A DNA stretch of 64,000 nucleotides from Lachnospiraceae bacterium (GCA_963621995.1 CAVFFZ010000001.1:134522-198521); one strand, 5' to 3'; positions 58,966 through 59,834 are shown, counted from the stretch's first letter. The notes: a model not told the origin generated them from the letters alone. Numbers and translations: made by a program.

Positions 58966-58994
58966 GTGGCAAAAGGGCCAGCCTTTTTTACCAC
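58966..58994. repeat. REP hairpin GTGGCAAAAGGGCCAGCCTTTTTTACCAC between the tgt start and the RAYT stop
   Basis: Inverted orientation relative to the REP at 59806-59834. Confidence 0.7.
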
Positions 58995-58996
58995 AT

Positions 58997-59746
58997 TTAT
59001 TTTTTTAACAATATTCTTCTTATCTTTTCCCTATGTACTTTTATTAAACTTTCTATTTTTTTGTAAGATAAATTATATCTATACTTTAAAACCTGTGATA
59101 TTTCTTTTATTAATTCATCATTATTATTTATTTCACATATACACATATTACGTTTTTCCAAAAATTGTTTTATATATTTAGTATATTGAATTTCATTGTC
59201 TTCCTTTGTTTCAATATAGTAATCTTCTTGTTCATTTTCTTTCATATGCATACTTTTATATAATGCTTTATTCAAAAATATATTTTCTATCATTTCTTTA
59301 TTCTTATATAAACTATTATAGCTAGAATATATATATCGACTTGCATCGTTACATATTTGAGCTTTTACTGGGTTATTATGTATATATATAATACAATTAA
59401 TAAAATGTTTTTGATCTCTTATTACTTGTGATTTATATCTATCTCTATACACATAACCAACTCTATTTTGATTTTTGTTATAATATATTGCATATATTGT
59501 ATTTATCTTTTGCATAAATTTAATTATATCTTCTATGTCTATATAGTTGACTAATATATGCACATGATTGTCCATGACACAATATGCTATAACACTTATT
59601 TTATATTTTTCACTGTATTCCTTTAATAGTTTTATGTATTCTTTCTTTTGACTATCTTTTTTAAATATTTTTTCTCTGTTAATTCCTTGAACCATAATAT
59701 GTAAATATTTCTTTTCTTTTATTAATCTTCTTTTTAAACGGGGCAT
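58997..59746 (-). CDS. REP-associated tyrosine transposase (RAYT; IS200/IS605-family Y1 HUH transposase-like)
   Basis: HUH motif [41 protein letters not shown] matches the RAYT block RRYWEHxIRDExDfxRHxDYIHxNPVK. Confidence 0.75.
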
Positions 59747-59805
59747 AAATATTCCTTCTTTCTTTTTTTATTTAAGCCCCTATTTTTATTTTTGAATTTT
59801 GCTTT

Positions 59806-59834
59806 GTGGTAAAAAAGACCGTCCCTTTTTTAAC
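59806..59834. repeat. REP hairpin GTGGTAAAAAAGACCGTCCCTTTTTTAAC, an inverted partner of 58966-58994, overlapping the queA stop codon
   Basis: The queA TAA lies at 59830-59832 inside the element. Confidence 0.7.

Follow-up and report, generated by a model that had tools for sequence, protein, structure and literature searches.

REPIN-RAYT systems, which pair a REP-associated tyrosine transposase (RAYT) with repetitive extragenic palindromes (REPs), are the best example of long-lived, vertically inherited intragenomic replicators and, to our knowledge, have been studied almost only in Proteobacteria. We here analyze a 64,000-nucleotide stretch of DNA from a Lachnospiraceae bacterium (GCA_963621995.1, CAVFFZ010000001.1:134522-198521; the window), in which a RAYT-like gene encoding a 249-residue protein lies between tgt and queA, bracketed by inverted hairpins. 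With a probability of about 0.68, we read it as a Y1 HUH endonuclease of the RAYT/TIRYT class that is present in single copy, passed on vertically and domesticated, and that has its own inverted hairpin pair (a REPtron or TIRtron). In the RAYT TnpA-REP a GTAG guide is read by residues W94, Q95, E100 and H101 (PMC6006769). TIRYT genes carry flanking inverted repeats with the common motif GGGG[AT][CG]A[CG] (PMC3733652, Di Nocera et al. 2013), and we equate TIRYT/TIRtron with TnpA-Y1 subclass 2.1 of Quentin et al. 2018 (PMC6006769). The original prediction for this locus, made from the sequence alone, had stressed the taxonomic novelty of a clostridial RAYT, a claim that has to be dropped, as RAYT-like genes in Clostridia were already reported (PMC5581495, PMC6006769), among them Group 1 RAYTs, a group with low flanking 16-mer counts (Bertels et al., PMC5581495). 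The locus, with the hairpin family at the gene designated A, is laid out as follows.

57826–58953, minus strand: tgt
58966–58994, plus strand: downstream family-A hairpin GTGGCAAAAGGGCCAGCCTTTTTTACCAC, in the opposite orientation to the upstream hairpin, its box (GGGCCAGCC) degenerate
58997–59746, minus strand: RAYT/TIRYT-like Y1 HUH gene, 249 aa, with a Y1 core (residues 13–141) and a helical extension (~143–249) ending in a helix-turn-helix (HTH)
59770–59783, minus strand: ATAGGGGCTTAAAT motif, 25–32 nt upstream of the start codon, a possible operator or leader element
59806–59834, minus strand: upstream family-A hairpin GTGGTAAAAAAGACCGTCCCTTTTTTAAC, reading GTTAAAAAAGGGACGGTCTTTTTTACCAC on the gene strand, with a GGGACGG box
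59830–60855, minus strand: queA
62413–63957, minus strand: ileS, cut off by the window end

The model searches proposed with the original prediction place the protein among Y1 transposases and closer to RAYTs than to IS200 enzymes. Pfam Y1_Tnp matches residues 13–125 at 52.6 bits, and the NCBIfam model REP_Tyr_transpos (NF047646) aligns end to end over its full length at 67.2 bits (curated RAYT equivalog cutoff, 80 bits), whereas the IS200 model NF033573 reaches 26.7 bits (cutoff, 55 bits). In an alignment of 31 full-length homologues (40–92% identity), REP_Tyr_transpos outscores the IS200 model in 31 of 31. The predicted HVH form of the HUH motif is borne out as H61-V-H63 and, like the tyrosine motif YIHNNPVK starting at Y121, is invariant in this alignment (invariant residues: H61, H63, Y121, I122, H123, N125 and P126); a Y-x-x-S-S-Y motif follows the tyrosine block. 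A profile search of Protein Data Bank sequences returned E. coli TnpA-REP (4ER8) as the top match (E = 4e-4), with the Y121 region aligned to YIYINPVK of 4ER8, and the AlphaFold (AF2) model (predicted local distance difference test score 86) has 4ER8 as its best fold match (E = 5.9e-7), followed by the IS608 and ISDra2 TnpA structures. At the 4ER8 positions W94/Q95/E100/H101/R104, the sequence alignment gives Y/R/S/Q/R. Past the Y1 core, the helical extension of about 105 residues is kept family-wide and has no significant Pfam match; its C-terminal 37 or so residues, modeled as a 3-helix HTH, give weak HTH matches by sequence and superpose on the HTHs of DeoR, ParB and sigma region 4 at 0.8–1.5 Å, with nonsignificant E-values. 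Bac_DnaA_C, HTH_23 and HTH_28, the domains reported for subclass 2.1, match none of the 31 family members, in which HTH matches are weak and sporadic only. The label RAYT-type thus holds as far as relative score and structural match go, and falls short in the cutoff, the missing GTAG-reading residues and the C-terminal HTH. The protein best fits a class 2 TnpA-Y1, most like subclass 2.1 (core plus C-terminal HTH), a likeness judged from the features described for that subclass.

The gene is intact and has been inherited in place. Its host is an uncultured human-gut Clostridia lineage (window GC content, 26.8%), and it is codirectional in an ileS-queA-tgt housekeeping cluster, the order on the minus strand being ileS, a 461-aa open reading frame (ORF), queA, the 249-aa ORF, tgt and a WG-repeat protein, with spacers of 83 nt upstream and 43 nt downstream of the Y1 gene. 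The 461-aa ORF (60925–62310, minus strand) has no confident Pfam match and stands between ileS and queA in all close relatives (445–452 aa). By tblastn, the 64-kb window holds no second Y1 gene, and tnpB does not accompany the one copy, the neighbors of which are queA and tgt. Relatives' loci, placed by exact-protein look-ups, have the order queA-Y1-tgt at 92% (L003), 83% (L006) and 50% (L009) protein identity and, with one extra ORF, at 43% (L012); other homologues are found as ileS-Y1-queA-tgt (L015, 46%), about 1.4 kb upstream of queA (L021, 40%) and as dnaB-Y1-tilS (L013, 43%), and more distant metagenome relatives lie at other genomic sites, not near queA or tgt. Across L001, L003 and L006, the synonymous divergence (dS) of the Y1 gene (0.30–0.64) tracks that of queA (0.32–0.41) and tgt (0.23–0.27), for instance 0.30 versus 0.32 for queA and 0.25 for tgt, and its ratio of nonsynonymous to synonymous divergence (dN/dS) is 0.12–0.29 versus 0.02–0.05 for the neighbors. 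The gene has therefore codiverged in place under purifying but weaker selection, and the splitting of queA from tgt that had been proposed was not recent, the arrangement being kept from 92 down to 43% identity. Homologues are rare on mobile DNA, with 21 weak matches in 72,556 plasmid records, all below 37% identity, and one phage record. A link to queuosine metabolism was considered and judged unlikely, with distant relatives away from queA/tgt and paralogues in unrelated operons; tilS, beside the L013 homologue, is another tRNA-modification gene. An Rfam scan of 56000–64000 gave no real preQ1 riboswitch or other known RNA.

Both 29-nt hairpin sequences given in the original prediction are correct, and they are inverted copies of one another, 88% complementary across 25 nt. 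Alignment of one flank to the reverse complement of the other gives z = 7.8 versus shuffles, with the direct-orientation control at background, and hairpin motif searches return 10 matches (0.93 expected) and 5 matches (0.94 expected). Strand-asymmetric details (4 A versus 6 T, a C·A mismatch and the core box) recur on either side of the gene in exact reverse complement, so the orientation is genuinely inverted. The downstream hairpin begins 2 nt past the stop of the Y1 gene and is identical in sequence in L003, L006 and L019. It ends 12 nt ahead of the tgt ATG and is followed on the gene strand by GGAAAGG, with a Shine–Dalgarno (SD) sequence and no T-tract, and tgt is therefore probably transcribed through the Y1 gene; the alternative is a promoter-like site within the 3′ end of that gene (59099–59072). 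The upstream hairpin overlaps the queA TAA (59830–59832) and its 5′ outer arm is degenerate. This overlap had been taken to mean that a REP supplies the queA stop codon, which the orthologues contradict: all QueA sequences terminate at one position, ...FGDAMFI-X-stop. The upstream hairpin is whole in L003 and L006 (GTGGC...), where it begins 6–14 nt past the queA stop, and in the window the spacer and the 5′ outer arm are absent, with GTTAA in place of GTGGC and the native TAA inside the 29-nt footprint. No queA codons have been replaced, and it is the hairpin that has eroded, with the gene unaltered. Between hairpin and start codon, the motif ATAGGGGC[AT]A stands at a fixed 25–32 nt before the start in L003, L006, L009 (two tandem copies), L012, L013, L015, L018 and L019, with variants of ATAGGGGCTTAAAT in L021, L030 and L040. 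It is independent of hairpin distance, is kept even where the flanking hairpins differ and is present in L013 despite the different genomic context; the HTH of the protein may use it as an operator.

To compare flanks more widely, we surveyed the loci of 64 distinct relatives, aligning in each 200 nt of upstream flank to the reverse-complemented downstream flank. The inverted alignment lies far above shuffles in about 45 of the 64 loci, and the direct-orientation control does not. The common core is GGGAC(G/A)G or GGGGACGGTTC, at the apex of hairpins with differing stems, and it is oriented: the box is found in sense upstream in 43/64 and in antisense downstream in 43/64, versus 5/64 each for the opposite orientations, and control regions 1 kb away have it on either strand in 12/101. 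It is kept in the flanks of relatives down to about 25–30% protein identity, some of which read GGGGACAG, an exact fit to the published TIRYT motif. The outer stem, in contrast to the box, changes between orthologous flanks from GTGGC/GCCAC to GAGTC/GACTC, TTGCC/GGCAA and CTGCA/TGCAG, and the 13-bp stem has six pairs with compensatory changes, a number reached in 0/500 shuffles, the score peaking in the correct register. Because the stems differ between lineages and covary, box plus hairpin would likely be the recognition element, with the stem as its family-specific part. The conserved GGGAC(G/A)G apex on lineage-specific stems makes a concrete, testable hypothesis of substrate recognition.

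Hairpins of family A are also found away from the gene, as had been predicted in relating the flanking pair to other palindromes. An inverted doublet of two 29-nt hairpins, 11 nt apart (62337–62405), stands directly past the ileS stop; its copies have z = −5.2, and the doublet, as single-stranded DNA (ssDNA), has a folding energy of −39 kcal/mol (z = −12.6). Since it forms a 34-bp hairpin followed by T6, it is the probable ileS terminator; it also scores as a terminator. In L003 and L006 the 3′ end of ileS carries an ordinary, unrelated terminator and no doublet, and the exact-pattern search gave no doublet for the genomes of L017 (= L006), L018 and L019; on this comparison the doublet is a lineage-specific gain in place of the ancestral ileS terminator. 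Other lineages have dispersed copies as well: in L006 an extra, diverged copy of family A lies 7 kb away from the gene, in L012 ileS is followed by a hairpin with that locus's own type of stem, and the L013 homologue has its own family (TGCCANNGGGGACGGACCTTCTTGGCAG; 1956–2020, 3077 and 6950–7050), with copies flanking the gene and three more 4 kb away. Rfam matches at 62327–62417 to eukaryotic miRNA precursors were rejected as spurious (sub-threshold; mir-548 at 52 bits versus a gathering threshold of 90), an artifact of long perfect hairpins.

Reasoning from E. coli TnpA-REP and IS608 TnpA, we would expect the protein to bind the hairpin folded in ssDNA, and to cut and rejoin DNA near it by way of an HUH-coordinated metal and Y121. 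Hairpins or inverted doublets may then occasionally be copied to new intergenic sites, where they could be kept as gene-end hairpins, the doublet putatively now serving as ileS terminator being an example.

Set against the described systems, the locus resembles TIRYT/2.1 in its RAYT-like Y1 core with conserved HUH, tyrosine and serine motif past the tyrosine, its extra C-terminal extension with a putative HTH, its single-copy chromosomal gene, its flanking inverted repeats with a G-rich motif (GGGAC(G/A)G or GGGGACGG, similar but not identical to the published one) and the lack of a GTAG foot kept across the family. It differs in the C-terminal domain, which matches none of the three domains reported for 2.1; in that the flanking repeats are the hairpins themselves, with the box at the apex; and in its dispersed copies and REPIN-like doublets, which are clear here for an enzyme type reported without them. 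With canonical RAYT/REP-REPIN systems (4ER8; Pseudomonas Group 2/3; PMC3116915, PMC5581495) it shares a single-copy, vertical Y1 gene with inverted cognate hairpins on both sides, inverted doublets in other intergenic DNA (family A at 62337–62405, family B at 18380–18505), one hairpin family per paralogue, and TnpA-REP as the best structural match. Those systems, however, have hundreds of REP copies rather than a handful, a 5′ GT[AG]G foot read by W94/Q95/E100/H101 where this protein has Y/R/S/Q, and proteins devoid of a C-terminal HTH, and the present protein scores under the NCBIfam equivalog cutoff; family A does start with GTGG, but orthologous flanks start with GAGTC, TTGCC or CTGCA. The marks of a RAYT in the broad sense, or class 2 TnpA-Y1, are all present (HUH with a Y-x-x-x-N-P-type helix, inverted cognate palindromes, single copy in the window and vertical inheritance), and of those of a canonical REP/REPIN system the inverted doublets are present, the high-copy dispersed palindrome and the GT[AG]G foot absent. 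IS200/IS605 TnpA proteins (IS608, ISDra2) have the HUH/Y1 fold in common with it (Foldseek E ~ 2e-5); they too have subterminal hairpins for recognition, and the ssDNA chemistry is presumably shared.

Several points weigh against a domesticated endonuclease with cognate hairpins. The protein misses the RAYT cutoff (67.2 versus 80 bits), and its biochemical activity is something we infer by analogy. For subclass 2.1, REP-like sequences did not turn up in the published survey (PMC6006769). Family A is of very low copy, with four copies in 64 kb, two of them at the gene, and the original prediction's proposed genome-wide census, which we ran as an exact-pattern search of 185,579 species-representative genomes (the source genome not among them), did find the pattern beside the gene, yet in only three genomes and always within a few kb of it (the flanking pair plus one duplicate). 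The flanking hairpins have only modest stability when taken as isolated ssDNA (z = −1.6 to −2.8); with this weakness, one hairpin lacking an arm and the other having a degenerate box, they may no longer be substrates. Finally, copy number and paralogue presence in the whole source genome are extrapolated from the window and from relatives.

The main alternative, which we consider unlikely though well ahead of those that follow, is that the protein is fully co-opted and moves no DNA. Its HTH, its Y1 core or both would bind GGGAC-box hairpins as a regulator or RNA/DNA-processing factor, which might regulate its own expression, control read-through into tgt or act on hairpins at gene ends, and the dispersed hairpins would be a regulon or terminators instead of mobile copies. 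The codirectional, operon-like setting with its 83- and 43-nt spacers, and with no promoter room between the downstream hairpin and the tgt SD, agrees with this, as do the family-wide HTH, the ATAGGGGC motif at a fixed distance from the start codon, the position of all elements at gene ends, a paralogue likewise fixed between fhs and groES (see below) and the view in the literature of single-copy Group 1/4/5 RAYTs as co-opted (10.1101/2021.07.10.451892). The HUH and tyrosine catalytic residues, however, are invariant, which a pure DNA-binding regulator would not need; the inverted doublets and the lineage-specific gain at ileS resemble copying events, and each paralogue has one hairpin family, as in RAYT/REP pairs.

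Less probable still is that an AT-rich genome has here nothing but ordinary intrinsic terminators or attenuators, hairpins alike through convergent A-tract/GC-core/T-tract design, and that the Y1 gene is an unrelated passenger. Their architecture of A-run, G-rich core and T-run, their position at gene 3′ ends, the terminator score of the doublet and the modest stability of the flanking copies would fit. Convergence, however, would have to produce strand-asymmetric features that are exact reverse complements across the gene and a box oriented beside homologues in 43/64 loci versus 5/64 in the wrong orientation, and it sits poorly with a downstream hairpin that runs into GGAAAGG and with ordinary terminators at the ileS site of relatives that are unrelated in sequence. 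An active IS200/IS605-type insertion sequence that recently transposed between queA and tgt, for which the Y1_Tnp domain, the hairpins at both ends and the position inside a normally contiguous gene pair might speak, is hardly credible and fails as the refuting case named in the original prediction, the score being less than half the IS200 cutoff, the gene single copy in the window, where such elements are multicopy, and free of tnpB, the hairpins inverted rather than same-strand left and right ends, the position kept over long divergence with dS as in the neighbors, and plasmid and phage homologues rare.

A domesticated RAYT/TIRYT-class enzyme with its own hairpin pair also bears on the other palindromes of the window. 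The original prediction had the gene explain the abundance of GGGACGGTCC-core palindromes, and the abundance is real: GGGAC[GA] occurs 19 times versus 8.7 ± 2.6 expected, 15 of these in some 13 hairpin elements between genes, all at gene ends and most of them directly behind a stop codon. The explanation holds for family A alone, however, as at least three palindrome families with the common core are present, and B and C flank paralogues on other contigs. The box-bearing elements of the window besides the flanking pair are the following.

7959–7990, plus strand: singleton hairpin whose loop contains a GGGGACA box
18380–18505, no strand assigned: family-B inverted doublet, units 18380–18425 (plus) and 18461–18505 (minus), unit AGGGACGGTCC-TTTTC-GTTCCGAAATCGGAAC-N3-GGGGACATTCC
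18843–18883, minus strand: family-C element (AAAGGACATTTGGGGACGGGKCACTTTTGTCCTTTACATAA)
33333–33369, minus strand: singleton hairpin whose loop contains a GGGGACAG box
36102–36147, minus strand: single family-B unit, its first two bases within the TAG stop of the ORF at 36146–37561
48681–48712, minus strand: singleton hairpin whose loop contains a GGGGACGG box, overlapping the stop of the ORF at 48711–51911 by 2 nt
52676–52715, plus strand: family-C element
53794–53828, no strand assigned: singleton perfect-arm palindrome AAAGGGACGTCCCTAATC/GATTAGGGATGTCCTTT, with the box on both strands
55955–55987, minus strand: family-C element with a degenerate left arm
62337–62405, no strand assigned: family-A doublet, REPIN-like, described above

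The 46-nt family-B unit, in which a GTTCCGAnnTCGGAAC hairpin stands between two direct GGGAC boxes, brackets a 41%-identical Y1 paralogue in L030 (3828–3888 and 4740–4800) and is also found at L040 7955–8015. Family C, almost unchanged from species to species, flanks a 39%-identical Y1 paralogue in L040 and this paralogue's counterparts in L100–L103. Orthologues of the L040 paralogue (76–99% identity) always lie between fhs (formate-THF ligase) and groES-groEL, with near-invariant family-C flanks, on contigs of about 27% GC from the same sample series as the source (Hadza, ERZ272...). The contigs of the source assembly yielded no L040-type paralogue, and co-occurrence in one genome is presumed. 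Because L040 has family B besides C, and L001, L003 and L006 all contain units of B and C in addition to A, the lineage would most likely have several paralogue/hairpin-family pairs, as described for RAYTs.

These results are compatible with a broader reading that we advance tentatively, at somewhat under even odds. A large clade of HTH-bearing RAYT-like proteins would run genuine REP/REPIN-like systems in low-GC gut Clostridia, its paralogues each fixed in a housekeeping operon (queA-tgt, fhs-groES, dnaB-tilS) and each owning a hairpin family with a common apical GGGGACGG box and a paralogue-specific stem, of which dispersed copies are recruited as terminators of essential genes such as ileS. 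If so, recognition would follow a conserved-loop/variable-stem code, unlike the GTAG-foot code, and REP-like systems would exist in a type reported without REPs and regarded as merely co-opted. Apart from this reading, the locus described here extends the gene-plus-cognate-hairpin logic to uncultured human-gut Clostridia, in an enzyme type that bears an HTH and had been without known repeats, and it accounts for a set of recurrent palindromes between genes that one could readily take for plain terminators. For annotation, this "transposase" is a stable chromosomal gene and no marker of mobile DNA.

Two smaller observations concern the hairpins and their surroundings. In L006 a direct duplication of about 85 bp (10741–10828 and 11823–11912), comprising the family-A hairpin and a second terminator hairpin, surrounds an inserted 275-aa ORF that sits between the Y1 gene and tgt. 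This ORF, the N terminus of which shows a weak methylation motif like that of type IV pilins, is missing from contig L008, whose Y1 protein is identical to that of L006. Box-bearing elements also tend to abut stop codons, and in the window three of them share 2–3 nt with the stop codon of the gene upstream (36146–36148, 48711–48713 and 59830–59832).

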